From positions 20,398,001-20,462,000 of the forward strand of contig OZ024757.1 in NCBI GenBank assembly GCA_964016885.1: a stretch of 64,000 bases of DNA. Reading direction: 5' to 3'. The notes beneath the pieces are model-generated. The model was given only the letters and a program-made list of their open reading frames with translations, had not been told where the DNA came from and did not search any database. The stretch comes from Eledone cirrhosa (Eukaryota). This document shows positions 22,260-37,693 of the stretch, piece by piece (the first letter of the stretch is position 1; every line of letters begins with the position of its first letter). The position numbers and the translations under genes are program-made.

Positions 22260-22311
<52 letters not shown>

Positions 22312-22431
22312 TATAGACATAGAATATTCGAAAATATTCTGTATGTTTATAATAAACATTTTGAAGACCTAATCGCTATAGAATAGAATACGTCACGTAT
22401 TACAATTAGATTCTCGATAAAAGCAAGGGAA

Positions 22432-23714
22432 GTAATCTACGCGTTTCATTCTTGTTAGAATTCATCAGGACTACATATCCAGTGCTTTTATCGAGAATGA
22501 CACAGCTAGAGACTTATAGAATACTTAGCTGTGTACAGGAACTGGTTTGAAAGAGCGGTTGCCGGTCCGGCAGAAATTAGAAATTGGAATAAATGCTCTG
22601 AAATAGCGATATATATGTGAATATAGACATAGAATATTCGAAAATATTCTGTATGTTTATAATAAACATTTTGAAGACCTAATCGCTATAGAATAGAATA
22701 CGTCACGTATTACAATTAGATTCTCGATAAAAGCAAGGGAAGTAATCTACGCGTTTCATTCTTGTTAGAATTCATCAGGACTACATATCCAGTGCTTTTA
22801 TCGAGAATGACACAGCTAGAGACTTATAGAATACTTAGCTGTGTACAGGAACTGGTTTGAAAGAGCGGTTGCCGGTCCGGCAGAAATTAGAAATTGGAAT
22901 AAATGCTCTGAAATAGCGATATATATGTGAATATAGACATAGAATATTCGAAAATATTCTGTATGTTTATAATAAACATTTTGAAGACCTAATCGCTATA
23001 GAATAGAATACGTCACGTATTACAATTAGATTCTCGATAAAAGCAAGGGAAGTAATCTACGCGTTTCATTCTTGTTAGAATTCATCAGGACTACATATCC
23101 AGTGCTTTTATCGAGAATGACACAGCTAGAGACTTATAGAATACTTAGCTGTGTACAGGAACTGGTTTGAAAGAGCGGTTGCCGGTCCGGCAGAAATTAG
23201 AAATTGGAATAAATGCTCTGAAATAGCGATATATATGTGAATATAGACATAGAATATTCGAAAATATTCTGTATGTTTATAATAAACATTTTGAAGACCT
23301 AATCGCTATAGAATAGAATACGTCACGTATTACAATTAGATTCTCGATAAAAGCAAGGGAAGTAATCTACGCGTTTCATTCTTGTTAGAATTCATCAGGA
23401 CTACATATCCAGTGCTTTTATCGAGAATGACACAGCTAGAGACTTATAGAATACTTAGCTGTGTACAGGAACTGGTTTGAAAGAGCGGTTGCCGGTCCGG
23501 CAGAAATTAGAAATTGGAATAAATGCTCTGAAATAGCGATATATATGTGAATATAGACATAGAATATTCGAAAATATTCTGTATGTTTATAATAAACATT
23601 TTGAAGACCTAATCGCTATAGAATAGAATACGTCACGTATTACAATTAGATTCTCGATAAAAGCAAGGGAAGTAATCTACGCGTTTCATTCTTGTTAGAA
23701 TTCATCAGGACTAC
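22432..23714 (-). ncRNA. Five type I hammerhead ribozymes (22432-22474, 22742-22784, 23052-23094, 23362-23404, 23672-23714)
   Basis: Minus strand: gtagtc-CTGATGA-attct-aaca-agaat-GAA-ACGCGT-A-gattac. Confidence 0.85.
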
Positions 23715-23841
23715 ATATCCAGTGCTTTTATCGAGAATGACACAGCTAGAGACTTATAGAATACTTAGCTGTGTACAGGAACTGGTTTGAAAGAGCGGTT
23801 GCCGGTCCGGCTGTGTCATTCTCGATAAAAGCACTGGATAT

Positions 23842-24194
23842 GTAGTCCTGATGAATTCTAACAAGAATGAAACGCGTAGATTACTTCCCTTGCTTTTATC
23901 GAGAATCTAATTGTAATACGTGACGTATTCTATTCTATAGCGATTAGGTCTTCAAAATGTTTATTATAAACATACAGAATATTTTCGAATATTCTATGTC
24001 TATATTCACATATATATCGCTATTTCAGAGCATTTATTCCAATTTCTAATTTCTGCCGGACCGGCAACCGCTCTTTCAAACCAGTTCCTGTACACAGCTA
24101 AGTATTCTATAAGTCTCTAGCTGTGTCATTCTCGATAAAAGCACTGGATATGTAGTCCTGATGAATTCTAACAAGAATGAAACGCGTAGATTAC
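23842..24194 (+). ncRNA. Two type I hammerhead ribozymes (23842-23884, 24152-24194)
   Basis: Same motif on +; predicted cleavage after A23878 and A24188. Confidence 0.85.
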
Positions 24195-24352
24195 TTCCCT
24201 TGCTTTTATCGAGAATCTAATTGTAATACGTGACGTATTCTATTCTATAGCGATTAGGTCTTCAAAATGTTTATTATAAACATACAGAATATTTTCGAAT
24301 ATTCTATGTCTATATTCACATATATATCGCTATTTCAGAGCATTTATTCCAA

Positions 24353-27979: not shown

Positions 27980-28982
27980 TATATATATATATATATATAT
28001 AATAGTAATGGGTATAATTGACATGTATATATGTGTATGTGTATATATATATGTATATATGTGTATGGGTATAATTGACATGTATATATGTATATATCCA
28101 GCCATAGATGTAAGAAAGACAGCAGGTAAGTAGCCAGTTAGGCTAGGTTATTTACTAGATGACATTTAATACTCACTGCTTTATCATCTCCCCAAAAAAA
28201 GGAAAATACACACACACACACATATATATATAAACACACACACACACACACACACGCATACATATATATAAACACACACACACACACACATATATATACA
28301 CACATATATATATATAAACACACACATATATATATATAAACACACACACACACATATATAGACACACACATATATATATATATAAACACACCACACACAC
28401 ACACACACACATCTATATATATATACACACACACACATATATATACAGACACAGGGTGTGGATGATAGAAAGAGATTTGTGGCATTGAGGAAGAGGGTGA
28501 GAGGATGAAGGAAGAGGGTGAGGGGGTGAAGGAAGAGGGTGAGGGGGTGAAAGGGAGGGACAGGGAAAAAGAAGGTAGGAAAGGGAATAACTCCAGAATC
28601 TGTTTTCACACTAAAGATACTCAGGGTGGCAGGCTTGGTGGGTGGAGGTGGAGGTGGAGATATGTGGAGGTAGGGAATGAGGGTGGAATCTACAAAGATA
28701 ATGAAATCATAATAACAATAATAATAATAAATAAATAAAATAAATAAAATCCATCAAGAAAGTAATAAAATTTTAAGTTTTCTATATTTGGGAGGTCTAT
28801 TCTGAGTGTATATGGAGTGACTGGGGAAGGGGAAGAGTGTCTGGGGAGTTAAATACCCCCCCCCCCTAGTAACCTTTCTCCCCCTCTCCATGAGACCTCT
28901 AACAAATTTTTAGTTAAAAAAAAATAGACTAAGACAAATCCTAAAAATAAAAAAAATAAAAATGAACTTTTGAAAATGAAAC

Positions 28983-30651
28983 TGTGAGTGGAATGGTGTG
29001 TGTTGGAGTGCGTAGAATGGCTTGTGTATATGTGAGTGGAATGGTGTGTGTTGGAGTGCGTAGAATGTCTTGTGTATATGTGAGTGGAATGGTGTGTGTT
29101 GGAGTGCGTAGAATGGCTTGTGTATATGTGAGTGGAATGGTGTGTGTTGGAGTGCGTAGAATGGCTTGTGTATATGTGAGTGGAATGGTGTGTGTTGGAG
29201 TGCGTAGAATGGCTTGTGTATATGTGAGTGGAATGGTGTGTGTTGGAGTGCGTAGAATGGCTTGTGTATATGTGAGTGGAATGGTGTGTGTTGGAGTGCG
29301 TAGAATGGCTTGTGTATATGTGAGTGGAATGGTGTGTGTTGGAGTGCGTAGAATGGCTTGTGTATATGTGAGTGGAATGGTGTGTGTTGGAGTGCGTAGA
29401 ATGGCTTGTGTATATGTGAGTGGAATGGTGTGTGTTGGAGTGCGTAGAATGTCTTGTGTATATGTGAGTGGAATGGTGTGTGTTGGAGTGCGTAGAATGG
29501 CTTGTGTATATGTGAGTGGAATGGTGTGTGTTGGAGTGCGTAGAATGTCTTGTGTATATGTGAGTGGAATGGTGTGTGTTGGAGTGCGTAGAATGGCTTG
29601 TGTATATGTGAGTGGAATGGTGTGTGTTGGAGTGCGTAGAATGGCTTGTGTATATGTGAGTGGAATGGTGTGTGTTGGAGTGCGTAGAATGGCTTGTGTA
29701 TATGTGAGTGGAATGGTGTGTGTTGGAGTGCGTAGAATGTCTTGTGTATATGTGAGTGGAATGGTGTGTGTTGGAGTGCGTAGAATGGCTTGTGTATATG
29801 TGAGTGGAATGGTGTGTGTTGGAGTGCGTAGAATGTCTTGTGTATATGTGAGTGGAATGGTGTGTGTTGGAGTGCGTAGAATGGTGTGTGTTGGAGTGCG
29901 TAGAATGGTGTGTGTTGGAGTGAGTGGAATGGTGTGTGTTGGAATGCGTAGAATGGGTTGTGTATATGTGAGTGGAATGGTGTGTGTTGGAGTGCGTAAA
30001 ATGGTTTGTGTGTACGTGAGTGGAATGGTGTGTGTTGGAGTGCGTAGAGTGGCTTGTGTATATGTGAGTGGAATGGTGTGTGTTGGAATGCGTAGAATGG
30101 GTTGTGTATATGTGAGTGGAATGGTGTGTGTTGGAGTGCGTAAAATGGTTTGTGTGTACGTGAGTGGAATGGTGTGTGTTGGAGTGCGTAGAGTGGCTTG
30201 TGTATATGTGAGTGGAATGGTGTGTGTTGGAGTGCGTAGAATGTCTTGTGTATATGTGAGTGGAATGGTGTGTGTTGGAGTGCGTAGAATGTCTTGTGTG
30301 TATGTGAGTGGAATGGTGTGTGTTGGAGTGCGTAGAATGGCTTGTGTATATGTGAGTGGAATGGTGTGTGTTGGAGTGCGTAGAATGGCTTGTGTATATG
30401 TGAGTGGAATGGTGTGTGTTGGAGTACGTGGAATGGTGTGTGTTGGAGTGCGTAGAATGGCTTGTGTATATGTGAGTGGAATGGTGTGTGTTGGAGTGCG
30501 TAGAATGGCTTGTGTATATGTGAGTGGAATGGTGTGTGTTGGAGTGCGTAGAATGGCTTGTGTATATGTGAGTGGAATGGTGTGTGTTGGAGTGCGTAGA
30601 ATGGTGTGTGTTGGAGTGCGTAGAATGGCTTGTGTATATGTGAGTGGAATG
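28983..30651. repeat. 48-bp satellite array (~35 units, heterogeneous)
   Basis: Unit gtgagtggaatggtgtgtgttggagtgcgtagaatggcttgtgtatat with point variants and partial-unit deletions. Confidence 0.95.
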
Positions 30652-31279
30652 TGTCCAAGAGAAAAAATTGGCATCAACAAAAATATTTTCAAAACAACAA
30701 ACTAACCAAAAAAGTGTGGTTTCACCAGCTTGTCTTATGACATGGCTTGATATTAAGAGAAACTAGCATTTGTTTTTATAATTGTGTGTGTTAACAAATT
30801 GTGTGTATTAAACGTTTTGAGAAGCTTATCATGCCTCAGTTATTACTTCAAATGTAGTGAGAGGTAATTCTCACAAAAAGAAATTGTATGAAAAATTCTA
30901 CTATATCTTATTTCTATTAAATTTAGTAGTTGGGATCCGGTGGTGCATGCTGGAGTAAGTAACCCTGGGACCAAACTCACTAAAAAAAACTAACCTTTTT
31001 AAATCCTCTCTTCCTTTTCTTTTTCTTTCCCTCATTATCATGCCCTCCCCCACCATATTCTATGTCCTTTCTCCATCATTAGCAGGAATGAAATGGGAAA
31101 TTATATATATATACTTACATGATTATAATCAATACATATTTAAGCGCAGGCATGCACGCATAATATCAGAAGGGAGGGATTGACCAGCCAAACAAAAGAC
31201 AAACCATTCAAGAGAGAAAAATATCAGAAGGGAGAGATTGACCAGCCAAACAAAAGACAAACCATTCAAGAGAGAAAAA

Positions 31280-31425
31280 TAGGTAGATAGATAGATCAAT
31301 GGATGGACAGATAGACACATGGATAGATAGATAGATAGATAGATCAATGGATGGACAGATAAATAGACACATAGATAGATAGATAGATAGATAGATCAAT
31401 GGATGGACAGATAAATAGACACATG

Positions 31426-31456
<31 letters not shown>

Positions 31457-31485
31457 CAATGGATGGACAGATAAATAGACACATG

Positions 31486-31520
<35 letters not shown>

Positions 31521-32245
31521 CAATGGATGGACAGATAAATAGACACATGGATAGATAGATAGATAGATAGATCAATGGATGGACAGATAAATAGACACAT
31601 GGATAGATAGATAGATAGATAGATAGATCAATGGATGGACAGATAAATAGACACATGGATAGATAGATAGATAGATCAATGGATGGACAGATAAATAGAC
31701 ACATGGATAGATAGATAGATAGATCAATGGATGGACAGATAAATAGACACATGGATAGATAGATAGATAGATCAATGGATGGACAGATAAATAGACACAT
31801 GGATAGATAGATAGATAGATCAATGGATGGACAGATAAATAGACACATGGATAGATAGATAGATCAATGGATGGACAGATAAATAGACACATGGATAGAT
31901 AGATAGATCAATGGATGGACAGATAAATAGACACATGGATAGATAGATAGATCAATGGATGGACAGATAAATAGACACATGGATAGATAGATAGATCAAT
32001 GGATGGACAGATAAATAGACACATGGATAGATAGATAGATCAATGGATGGACAGATAAATAGACACATGGATAGATAGATAGATCAATGGATGGACAGAT
32101 AAATAGACACATGGATAGATAGATAGATCAATGGATGGACAGATAAATAGACACATGGATAGATAGATAGATCAATGGATGGACAGATAAATAGACACAT
32201 GGATAGATAGATAGATCAATGGATGGACAGATAAATAGACACATG

Positions 32246-32276
<31 letters not shown>

Positions 32277-32318
32277 CAATGGATGGACAGATAAATAGAC
32301 ACATGGATAGATAGATAG
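31280..32318. repeat. GATA-based minisatellite (fixed core plus variable (GATA)n)
   Basis: gatcaatggatggacagataaatagacacatg(gata)n, about 21 copies. Confidence 0.9.
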
Positions 32319-32574
32319 AAAGAGAATTAGAGAGAGAGTGTGTTTAAGATGTTAATCAGTATGATAATGGTGCCAGTAGCTTGCATGAATAATGTGTCCT
32401 AGACATGTGTTGTCCACAATTAAAATATCAGTAGCCAAAGGCAAGTGCCAAGATTTCCAGTCTAGGAAACCTTCAGTTTTGCTGGCATTAAATAAATGGT
32501 TATAATCCAGCTTGTTGTGACATCTCTATAGGGATCAGAGAATATGTATGTTTGTGCAAAACACAGACGACGGA

Positions 32575-34014
32575 ATATACACAAGCCATTCTACGCACTC
32601 CAACACACACCATTCCACTCACATATACACAAGCCATTCTACGCACTCCAACACACACCATTCCACTCACATATACACAAGCCATTCTACGCACTCCAAC
32701 ACACACCATTCCACTCACATATACACAAGCCATTCTACGCACTCCAACACACACCATTCCACTCACATATACACAAGCCATTCTACGCACTCCAACACAC
32801 ACCATTCCACTCACATATACACAAGCCATTCTACGCACTCCAACACACACCATTCCACTCACATATACACAAGCCATTCTACGCACTCCAACACACACCA
32901 TTCCACTCACATATACACAAGCCATTCTACGCACTCCAACACACACCATTCCACTCACATATACACAAGCCATTCTACGCACTCCAACACACACCATTCC
33001 ACTCACATATACACAAGCCATTCTACGCACTCCAACACACACCATTCCACTCACATATACACAAGCCATTCTACGCACTCCAACACACACCATTCCACTC
33101 ACATATACACAAGCCATTCTACGCACTCCAACACACACCATTCCACTCACATATACACAAGCCATTCTACGCACTCCAACACACACCATTCCACTCACAT
33201 ATACACAAGCCATTCTACGCACTCCAACACACACCATTCCACTCACATATACACAAGCCATTCTACGCACTCCAACACACACCATTCCACTCACATATAC
33301 ACAAGCCATTCTACGCACTCCAACACACACCATTCCACTCACATATACACAAGCCATTCTACGCACTCCAACACACACCATTCCACTCACATATACACAA
33401 GCCATTCTACGCACTCCAACACACACCATTCCACTCACATATACACAAGCCATTCTACGCACTCCAACACACACCATTCCACTCACATATACACAAGCCA
33501 TTCTACGCACTCCAACACACACCATTCCACTCACATATACACAAGCCATTCTACGCACTCCAACACACACCATTCCACTCACATATACACAAGCCATTCT
33601 ACGCACTCCAACACACACCATTCCACTCACATATACACAAGCCATTCTACGCACTCCAACACACACCATTCCACTCACATATACACAAGCCATTCTACGC
33701 ACTCCAACACACACCATTCCACTCACATATACACAAGCCATTCTACGCACTCCAACACACACCATTCCACTCACATATACACAAGCCATTCTACGCACTC
33801 CAACACACACCATTCCACTCACATATACACAAGCCATTCTACGCACTCCAACACACACCATTCCACTCACATATACACAAGCCATTCTACGCACTCCAAC
33901 ACACACCATTCCACTCACATATACACAAGCCATTCTACGCACTCCAACACACACCATTCCACTCACATATACACAAGCCATTCTACGCACTCCAACACAC
34001 ACCATTCCACTCAC
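32575..34014. repeat. Exactly 30 identical 48-bp units, inverted relative to 28983-30651, flanked by a 19-bp direct repeat
   Basis: aaacacagacgacggaata at 32559-32577 and 34015-34033. Confidence 0.95.
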
Positions 34015-34314
34015 AAACACAGACGACGGAATAAAGTTGGGAAGTGAGTAAAGATGAGCAGAAACCTGTACAGTAAGTCTGTGAGTGTATGTATATGTGT
34101 ATGTAAGTGTGTGTGTGTGTGTGTATATATATATAGATGGGGAATTACCAGTTTAGACTAGTCAGACCATTGTTCAGTTTAGTACTCAATACTTAAGAAA
34201 ATAGAGTTTCTGCTCAATGGCTGAGCTCTTGCATTTTTTTCAGGCAGAAACTCCTTACAATATATATATATATAGTAAACTTTTAATCTGTGGCAGTAAT
34301 AAATACACACACAC

Positions 34315-34359
<45 letters not shown>

Positions 34360-34360
34360 C

Positions 34361-34557
34361 GAAGGAGGGGTGGTAAGGAACCAGATGGACCATAACGCTC
34401 CAGAGTACTCAATACTTAGGGTAGTAGAATGGGTAATAGGAAAATGTATGAGCCCGACGGCAGAGCTCAAGCCGTTTCGACGGCTATTTGTGGACCGTCC
34501 AGAACAGAAATAGCCGTCGAAACGGCTTGAGCCCTGCCGTCGGGGTCATACATTTTC
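34361..34557. mobile_element. Fold-back PLE-like remnant
   Basis: Palindrome at 34440-34557, same family as 16328-16452. Confidence 0.65.
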
Positions 34558-34579
34558 ATATATATATATATATATATAT

Positions 34580-34828
34580 ATCACCTTGACCGACCAGTCT
34601 GTCGAGCGGCGACGCTGGTCACAGCACGTCGTGGTGTTTTAGCCATAAGATAACGCCATCCCACTGGCTGGGAGGGCAGGCCGGTACTCATTTCTACAGC
34701 TGAGTAAACTGGAGCAACGTGAAATAAAGTGTCTTGCTCAAGGAAACAACACATCACCCGGTCCGAGAATTGAACTCACAACCTTTCGATTGCAAGCCCA
34801 ATGCTTTAACCACTAAGCCATGCGCCTT

Positions 34829-34830
<2 letters not shown>
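34580..34830 (-). mobile_element. SINE with SINE-B head and core but a different 3' part
   Basis: Head and core match at 34688-34830; distinct sequence at 34580-34687. Confidence 0.65.
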
Positions 34831-34879
<49 letters not shown>

Positions 34880-35649
34880 TTATATATATATATATAAATA
34901 TTAGATTTGTGATGTATTGAGAAAAGTGCCAATATCAGTACTCAATGCTCTAGCAGAGTGTATATATTAAGAAAAACAAAACAAGGTTTTCATTGATTAG
35001 GCTCAGTTATGAATGTTTCAATAACAACTTCAATGTGAAGCCTCGTTTTGTTCTTTATATATATGTATATATATATATATATATATAGGAAAATCTGCAT
35101 CGTAGAATCAAGACGTATCTGAGGAGCTTGTGTACCATGTCTATGTTAGCCACTGGGCACACTGAGTTCAGGCTGTGAACAGCTGACATCTCTATTCCAT
35201 AACCAGTTTTAGACGCTGCGTGATAACACCAACAAAAATTAAAATGGTGGTGATCTTGTTTGTTGGTTACAAGAGACAAATAAAAAAAAATATAAGATAA
35301 TTGCTATGGAAAGCGAAAATTTTGAAAATCATGGCGAACAATTTGAATGTATTCCTAAATACCATATATTGTCATTAAAAATGAAGTTGACATGAAATCA
35401 GCAGCATCTTTTTGTAAGGATTCACTGTTTTAAAATCCAATACTGCTGGAATAAAAATTACTAATTAAATCTAAGAGAAATTGCTGTCTATTTTATTACA
35501 ATATGATTGTTTTGACTTGTAGTTACCTTTCTTATGAGGGTTGGCTGAAAAGTTCACAGGCTGACTATGAAGGAGTGATTGATGCTAGAGCAGTGAAATC
35601 TTGCATGCATTAATTTCAACTCTTATTATTAATAACTGGATGAAAGCGA

Positions 35650-36043: not shown

Positions 36044-37693
36044 GGAGAAGTACCTAGCCAAAGGTAAACCCCTCTACTTAGCTTTTGTCGACTTGGAGAA
36101 AGCCTTCGACAGAGTCCCCCGCTCCATTATCTGGTGGGCTCTTAGAAAACTAGGCATTGACGAATGGCTTGTGAGGGCTATACAAGCCATGTATAAAGAA
36201 ACAGTCAGCAAGGTTAGAATTAACAACGAATATAGTGAAGAGTTTAGCGTAAAAGTTGGCGTCCATCAGGGCTCTGTTCTCAGCCCCCTACTATTTATTA
36301 TTGCCCTTCAGGCTATAACAGAGGAGTTCAAGACAGGCTGCCCATGGGAACTCCTATACGCAGACGACCTGACACTCATAGCGGAATCAATGGCCGAGCT
36401 AGAGAAGAAATTCCAAACATGGAAGCACGGCCTAGAGTCAAAAGGACTTAAAATTAACCTGGCTAAGACCAAAGTACTAGTTTGTAGGAAAGAAAACAAG
36501 GCGGCGGTCCCTTCTGGGAAATGGTCGTGCTCGGTGTGTAGGAAAGGCGTAGGTAGAAACTCCATTTTATGTCCTAAATGCAAAGTATGGGTGCATAAAA
36601 GATGTAGTGGGATCACAGGTAAGCTAACTAAGAACATAGATTTTACATGTGGCCGGTGTTCTGGTGCAATAAGTAGCAGCAAGTGCCCACAAAATACTAG
36701 CTCTTTCAATTGCGCAGAGGGTTCTATAGAAATAGTGGACAGCTTCCGTTACCTGGGCGATAAAATCAGCAGTGGGGGAGGGTGCTCTGAAAGTACTGTA
36801 GCTAGAGTCAGAACTGGTTGGAAAAAGTTCAGAGAGCTTATACCACTATTAGCTGCTAAAGGGTTCTCCCTAAAAATGAAAGGCAGGTTGTACGATGCCT
36901 GCATACGAACAGCAATGCTGCATGGCAGTGAGACCTGGGCATTGTGTGCAGAGGATATACGCAGACTAGAGAGGAACGAAGCTTGCATGCTCCGCTGGAT
37001 GTGTAACAGTAATATACGTGAACGGCAGAGCATAAACGAACTAAGGAAAAAATTAGAGATAAGAGGGATCAGATGTTGTTTACTCGAGAGAAGGCTACGT
37101 TGGTATGGACACGTGATGCGCATGAAAGTCGATAGCTGTATAACAAAGTGCAGGGCAATAAAGATAGACGGTAGTCACGGAATAGGCAGACCTAGAAAAT
37201 CCTGGGACGAGCTGATAAACTCCGACATCACACACTTACACCTCTCCAAGACAATGTCACTGGACCGAGACCTTTGGCGGTACTCAGTAACAGAGAAGAC
37301 CCGCCTTACCTAAATATATAGTAAAACCTACTCCAGCCAGTAGGCATCTCTAACAAAATACACCCCGTCCCACCACCACCACCACCCCCACCCCATCCAC
37401 ACCACCCCGTTCTATGTAAAGTTATGTTGGTGCCGCGCCATCGAGGCCGAAACAAATGAGATCGTGTAGGTGTCACGACAAAAAAACACACAGTCCACGC
37501 TGTAATGTGGCCGTGTAGGCAACACGGTAAAAACCTCCCAGACCCACACTGTAAATGTGGTTGGTGTTAGGAAGGGCATCCAACTGTAGAAAACCTGCCA
37601 GACAGTCCTATGCGAGCAAGACAATCACTCTTGCCTCAAGTGGGACTACCCCCGTCCAAACCCATGCAAGCGTGGAACACGGACGTTAAACGT

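Follow-up and report, generated by a model that had tools for sequence, protein, structure and literature searches.

The 64-kb window (the whole stretch of 64,000 nucleotides analysed here) contains two tandem arrays of one 48-bp unit that lie 1924 nt apart in opposite orientations (Table 1). The right-hand array, the block, divides into 30 identical 48-mers between 32575 and 34014, is scored by TRF at 100% matches and keeps its period for one further base, giving a periodic stretch of 1441 nt (30.02 units). It is bracketed by an exact, non-extendable direct repeat of 19 nt, with microhomology to the unit of 3 nt (ATA) at the left junction and 1 nt (A) at the right. The original prediction had named the 30 invariant units, which unit splitting and TRF confirmed, as well as the bracketing repeats, the two microhomologies and the reverse-complement relationship to the majority unit of the array about 1.9 kb away, and each of these held as described. 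The DNA between the repeats amounts to 1437 nt, and valid insert lengths run from 1437 to 1441 nt, depending on how the microhomologies are assigned; a count of exactly 30 units is one of these five readings and would arise by chance at about 5/48 (an estimate). Because the ATA microhomology sets the phase of the left end, the whole-number count is not independent evidence, and the phase of the right end is the sole free coincidence.

Table 1. Positions in the window of the two 48-bp arrays, the duplicated target and the left flank.
Feature	Position	Strand	Description
Inserted block	32575..34015	+	48-bp unit in 30 identical copies, with 1 nt more; + strand rich in C; without tail or non-unit sequence
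Target-site duplication, left copy, 19 bp	32559..32577	+	Overlaps the start of the unit by its last 3 nt (ATA)
Target-site duplication, right copy, 19 bp	34015..34033	+	First base (A) common to the unit
Donor minisatellite	28983..30651	-	About 35 units, G-rich on the + strand, inverted relative to the block; no flanking direct repeat
Donor outermost 85 nt	28983..29067	-	Identical to the right end of the block, with the same end phase; putative template
Unique left flank	32340..32558	.	Orthologous in a related species (~93% alike), where it continues into the right flank without the block

The left-hand array, which we regard as the donor, comprises 17 perfect units among about 35, a recurrent one-base variant, degenerate units and units of 72 bp, with 5 variant units among its first 18. 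Perfect identity to the block extends over at most 383 nt (8 units) within the donor, whose outer end matches the right end of the block over 85 nt, stopping at a variant base at 29068. The right end of the block and the outer boundary of the donor (28983) are in a common phase, a coincidence with a chance probability of about 2–6% that was noticed post hoc; this shared end and the count of exactly 30 units amount to one coincidence, not two. The probability of drawing 30 perfect units at random from such a donor is about 5e-10. A linear copy of the present donor was ruled out, as its longest perfect run is too short and variants occur among its outer units.

The unit has its source nearby and is private to this locus. 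Exact pattern matching over the assembly gave 49 (30 + 19) and 55 (29 + 26) copies of two unit motifs, all inside the block and the donor and equal in number to the counts within the window. In a DNA search of the assembly, the counts from which are lower bounds, the matches of more than 83% identity were those in the block and the donor, and distant matches were 69–76% identical and CA-rich. The local donor proposed in the original prediction is supported by this confinement, and no further genomic blocks of the unit, for which it had suggested a search, were found in the assembly. The left flank of the donor is unique and the right flank is unique for the first 174 nt, after which a probable LTR fragment begins. 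The confinement of the copies to two arrays and the unique donor flanks rule out the unit as a genome-wide satellite or part of a transposon, and since the donor flanks contain no direct repeat longer than 7 nt, the donor was also ruled out as an earlier insertion flanked by a target-site duplication (TSD). Between the two arrays, at 30813–30985, lies a 172-bp fragment of a dispersed repeat that is 94–98% alike to its other copies, which often occur as direct pairs with a spacing of 4–5 kb, next to frames resembling gag, protease and integrase; it is probably a piece of an LTR.

The claim that the block was inserted at a staggered break with a TSD is supported by the uniqueness of the 19-mer and of the left flank and by the corresponding site in a relative. 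There are two exact copies of the 19-mer in the whole 3.0-Gb assembly, both at the block, and no match beyond these two was found in the 64-kb window with up to 4 mismatches allowed. The 19-mer was therefore ruled out as a piece of a larger dispersed repeat, the alternative raised with the original prediction. In run X4, which derives from another organism ~93% alike over 230 nt (one contig, depth 21), the contig tracks the left flank to 32564 and then carries 30 loose letters, which read as the end of a single, diverged copy of the target running straight into the right flank; agreement by eye is 23/30 (7/10, 10/10 and 6/10), with a 3-nt gap. On this alignment the relative's site is empty with a single target copy, which is the check for an empty allele that had been suggested with the original prediction. 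Because the related species has an empty site, the block is an insertion with a TSD. A further 19 arrays of the window were checked for flanking repeats without a credible case; the longest candidate, of 16 nt, is an ATA run around a SINE dimer.

The insert consists of unit sequence throughout: neither end carries a poly-A or simple-repeat tail, no transposon termini were found around the block or the donor array, and the 30 identical units carry no editing or splicing marks. The predicted folding energy of one 48-nt unit is -2.6 kcal/mol, indicating little structure, and there are no Rfam ribozyme matches at E<=1 inside either 48-bp array, ruling out the unit as a ribozyme or structured RNA. 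A satellite carried on a DNA transposon (MITE, Helitron/Helentron) was likewise ruled out, as nothing intervenes between the TSD and the units and the donor flanks are unique next to the array. Elsewhere in the window, a two-armed array of 310 bp at 22299–24350 (4.9 copies, then ~1.7 inverted copies) lies between TA runs and has seven weak matches to hammerhead HH9 (E 0.099; 23 bits, where the cut-off is 52); it appears to be a retrozyme-like element.

We examined read depths for the presence of the block in three runs (X1–X3) of S1, the one well-covered sample of the same species as the assembly (organism A), which contain 0.60–0.62 of the words of 28600–35600. Runs X5–X20 contain small shares only, and no RNA run was among those listed, which has no bearing on expression. 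The unit is present in X1–X3, but contigs give no cover over 32330–32569, a gap that a filter can cause, and we saw no read or contig crossing either junction in these runs. The depths of the four unit contigs were divided by the copy numbers expected under each arrangement for X1 and X3; X2, in which the unit had collapsed into one contig, was left out. The most even fit was to the donor alone, with a coefficient of variation of 1.9% (X1) and 1.5% (X3), relative to 3.8% and 3.1% for a heterozygous block and 5.5% and 4.9% for a homozygous block. The donor-only fit implies a single-copy depth of 9.4 (X1) and 11.5 (X3) vs. 10.7 and 15.2 for the one-copy donor variant, a rough match, all of these depths being rounded contig means and the variant contig having been identified by piece coordinates rather than by its letters. 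The simplest reading is that S1 lacks the block, although a variant-rich second haplotype could hide a heterozygous copy. As the S1 depths fit a donor without the block, the block would be polymorphic, somatic or an artefact. We believe that it is probably real and the product of a single event, but the view that it is direct evidence of satellite seeding was too strong, with no junction-crossing read seen and S1 depths that fit its absence.

The reading that we favor, to which we assign a probability of about 0.45, is that one local event produced the block: synthesis from the left 3′ end of a staggered cut was primed on the array nearby, and the outermost donor unit was recopied ~30 times. 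That the block was made in one local event is likely, and the cutting enzyme was probably the endonuclease of a non-LTR retrotransposon. The 19-bp duplication requires nicks 19 nt apart, which would leave 3′ overhangs. The top-strand 3′ end at 32577 would act as the primer through its 3-nt ATA match to the G-rich strand of the donor (the top strand), and synthesis would run leftward along that template. Polymerase theta produces snap-back inverted insertions. The template could have been reached by either of two routes: the resected top strand may have folded back onto the donor, necessarily giving an inverted copy of the DNA to its left, or a tethered + strand transcript may have served as the template, with the same inverted product, such that a DNA template and a nascent RNA template would both fit. 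Synthesis would have stopped at 28983, slipped back by one unit (there is a perfect match of 37 nt in unit 2) and recopied unit 1, in a cycle resembling that of telomerase on its template, before the break was closed by joining at the 1-nt match. The stop at 28983 and the one-unit slippage would together account for the identity of the units, their end phase, their orientation and their distance from the donor. The more specific proposal is a telomerase-like reaction on an ordinary chromosomal minisatellite at a cut made by a retrotransposon: the enzyme, either a polymerase or the reverse transcriptase of a LINE, would copy a single unit as far as a fixed end of the template, slip back and repeat this 30 times to give a full-size homogeneous daughter array in one step. 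This we consider doubtful. The lack of the poly-A or simple-repeat tail of a standard product of target-primed reverse transcription (TPRT) counts against recopying, as does the need for a hard stop at 28983, to which the analysis could assign no transcript, promoter or host gene. So too does the near-perfect whole-number array at L181:1969–4718 (25 x 110 bp, 99%, with two interspersed variants), which has no TSD and indicates that whole-number arrays arise in place without one, and so does the lack of a second case in the 1.86 Mb surveyed.

Young copies of one SINE in this genome have TSDs of 9–24 nt (median 15) in 25 of 58 copies, vs. 13 of 1143 shuffled pairs, and because of this span the local LINE machinery can be said to make cuts of the 19-nt size. 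When the features expected of TPRT were compared with the block, its 19-nt TSD lay in the SINE range and the ATA microhomology was present at the priming junction, whereas a 3′ tail was absent. The 20 nt upstream of the target scored 0.55 bits against a profile of 42 SINE sites in the orientation that the recopying model requires, which falls within the range of those sites, and -6.05 in the other, which does not, a weak result in that 18% of random sites reach 0.55. Rightward of the block, on the + strand at 36045–37313, is an open 422-aa 3′ part of a LINE ORF containing RVT_1 with an inserted PHD finger, which by resemblance may be RTE-like. In the available part of its description, the RTE signature is a TSD that begins with T about 10 nt past a run of T (PMC6007223); in the G-rich sense the TSD of the block begins with T but has only TT at -10/-9, and the profile is weak. 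A survey for a host gene of the 140 longest of 396 unique ORFs, from ~120 kb on each side, returned domains of retroelements, a single match to DUF6451 and another that fell below threshold. An open frame of 662 aa on the minus strand (L040:309–2294), in unique DNA ~60 kb to the right of the window, has no Pfam match, and L045:6057–6545 (+), a possible exon, has a sub-threshold match to p53-inducible protein 11 (E 8e-4, 19.9 bits vs. a cut-off of 27).

Against a single event of recopying stands the possibility that the same kind of break caught an ordinary short inverted templated insert of 1–8 perfect donor units, which later grew to 30 by slippage or unequal exchange. The donor does contain a perfect run of 8 units, the genome is rich in minisatellites (584 arrays in 1.86 Mb), and tandem growth is seen in L043 (3 x 192 bp), L137 (3 x 184 bp) and L181 (25 x 110 bp, 99%). 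However, of 178 non-edge arrays with at least 10 copies, none but this block reaches 100% identity; a seed from the internal perfect run would leave the common end phase unexplained, and one from the outer end of the donor would be limited to 85 nt. We regard this course as possible but unlikely. Less probable still is that the block was rolled into the break from a circle, either a small DNA circle looped out of perfect units in the donor or a circle of RNA that Penelope-type machinery copied. It would account for the units being identical, a two-armed array with weak matches to the hammerhead lies elsewhere in the window, and satellite extrachromosomal circular DNA (eccDNA) has been implicated, in the available part of the account, in seeding new Drosophila arrays (PMC7403614). 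Yet the insertion lies 1.9 kb from the only source, with no copy elsewhere, so that a tethered template is needed: a free circle is unlikely since it would not land beside its only source, the odds of landing within 2 kb of it in 3 Gb being roughly one in a million (an estimate). Moreover, neither 48-bp array matches a ribozyme, one unit has little predicted structure, the block is one-armed and outside any TA run, and a circle has no reason to end in the phase of the donor boundary. Of the amplification originally proposed, the tiny template in place of a linear copy was upheld, the option of iterative copying agrees with the reading favored here, the free rolling circle of eccDNA or circular RNA was not supported, and the whole-number unit count, which might be taken as a sign of a circle, does not argue for one.

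It is also feasible, at a similarly low probability, that the block is not germline, being either an artefact of the assembly or the library, or a somatic change in the tissue that was sequenced. Its perfect identity, unique among the 178 arrays, would be consistent with this, as would the S1 depths that fit the donor alone in a sample whose donor make-up is close to that of the assembly, and the lack of a junction-crossing contig seen in S1. Conversely, S1, with 0.60–0.62 of the sampled words, may come from a different animal, and a heterozygous block could be masked if the donor on a second haplotype were richer in variants. Variants also persist in the other arrays, including the donor, so arrays in general were not flattened by polishing. 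We know of no assembler behavior that would leave an inverted local repeat inside a 19-bp duplication, which counts against an artefact.

The block shares features with several known systems, which are compared here on the basis of the available parts of the cited accounts. It is like the interstitial telomeric sequences inserted at double-strand breaks in consisting of identical repeats at a unique site, with an empty ortholog and in-register 3′ microhomology (PMC2246262); flank duplication accompanies 6 of the 130 loci from rodents and 4 of the 25 from primates (Table 1 of PMC2246262). It differs in that its unit is private and of 48 bp rather than a hexamer, with no dedicated template RNA or enzyme and a source 1.9 kb off (PMC2246262). 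L1 ORF2p breaks can carry sequence templated from nearby DNA and have TSDs of 12–18 bp (PMC11702581). The similar TSD length, the locally templated sequence and the inversions at the site are points in common, whereas there the local sequence joins an L1 or mRNA insert and the block is made of repeat units alone, 30-fold and tailless (PMC11702581). With the templated insertions of Pol theta or microhomology-mediated break-induced replication (MMBIR), the block shares microhomology priming, a fold-back inverted copy and repeated copying of one locus, but it has a clean 19-bp TSD, 1.44 kb of strict periodicity and a single source unit (PMC13065848). In terms of what is expected of that class, a nearby inverted template and junction microhomology are present, and a colinear copy is not.

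The seeding of Rsp-like satellites in Drosophila is comparable in that new arrays arise with junction microhomology, and a 32-bp flank duplication is described there in four clusters (PMC7403614). Rsp-like, however, is abundant, chromosome-wide, present on eccDNA and inserted into another satellite, whereas the unit of the block is private and moved once, by 1.9 kb, into unique DNA (PMC7403614). The spread to several distant loci expected of eccDNA seeding was not found, the exact copies being confined to two arrays. Metazoan non-LTR retrozymes form tandem arrays of 150–450 bp units with TSDs of >4 bp (PMC7229834), and the block resembles them as a tandem array inserted with a TSD longer than 4 bp, but it has a unit of 48 bp and no hammerhead, and it is not dispersed (PMC7229834). 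The block thus belongs to neither the retrozymes, the telomeric insertions nor the transposon-borne satellites. A literature search, with most subscription journals outside its scope, returned no description of a private minisatellite with a homogeneous, inverted daughter array between the copies of a TSD.

To gauge how common such arrays are, we surveyed 1.86 Mb, or 0.06% of the assembly, on four contigs (C18 20.0–21.06 Mb, which includes the window, C17, C23 and C14). This survey gave 584 arrays with a period of at least 12, and with the 63 edge arrays left out, 521 non-edge arrays remained, none of which is a second TSD-flanked private array. Flags were raised for 20 of the 337 non-edge arrays in 1.264 Mb, and the true TSDs by eye were those of this block and of 2–3 SINE multimers, the remaining flags being degenerate array edges. 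A further 184 arrays in 0.6 Mb, for which the rule was changed and only those of >=85% identity were printed, gave 6 flags, none of them a private TSD-flanked array. No private inverted pair besides the block and the donor was found among 135 complex arrays, and array-level copy numbers (>5) occurred only at this locus among 51 clusters of private inverted 24-mers. As the sample covers 0.06% of the assembly, many cases could exist genome-wide. Minisatellite density is very high in the tiles of all four contigs, with many arrays having grown inside SINEs. The ~190-bp SINE multimers at L043:5638–6247, L137:3227–3823 and L053:1194–1973 have 3–4 copies and one TSD of 14–19 bp each, consistent with either template re-use during insertion or later growth; L053 is less clear, as it is preceded by another SINE end.

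The founding of new satellite arrays has usually been argued from old, abundant satellites whose source is untraceable. Because the unit described here exists at one locus only, the source, target, orientation and both junctions can be read, and although the block may prove to be an artefact, it represents one case, unusually easy to read, in which a minisatellite founded a daughter array at a staggered break. The event stands alone, and no function is known for it. If reads confirm the block, an allele series from populations can separate one-step synthesis from a seed followed by growth. If telomerase-like recopying recurs genome-wide, it would constitute a route of satellite birth that requires neither circles nor gradual expansion.
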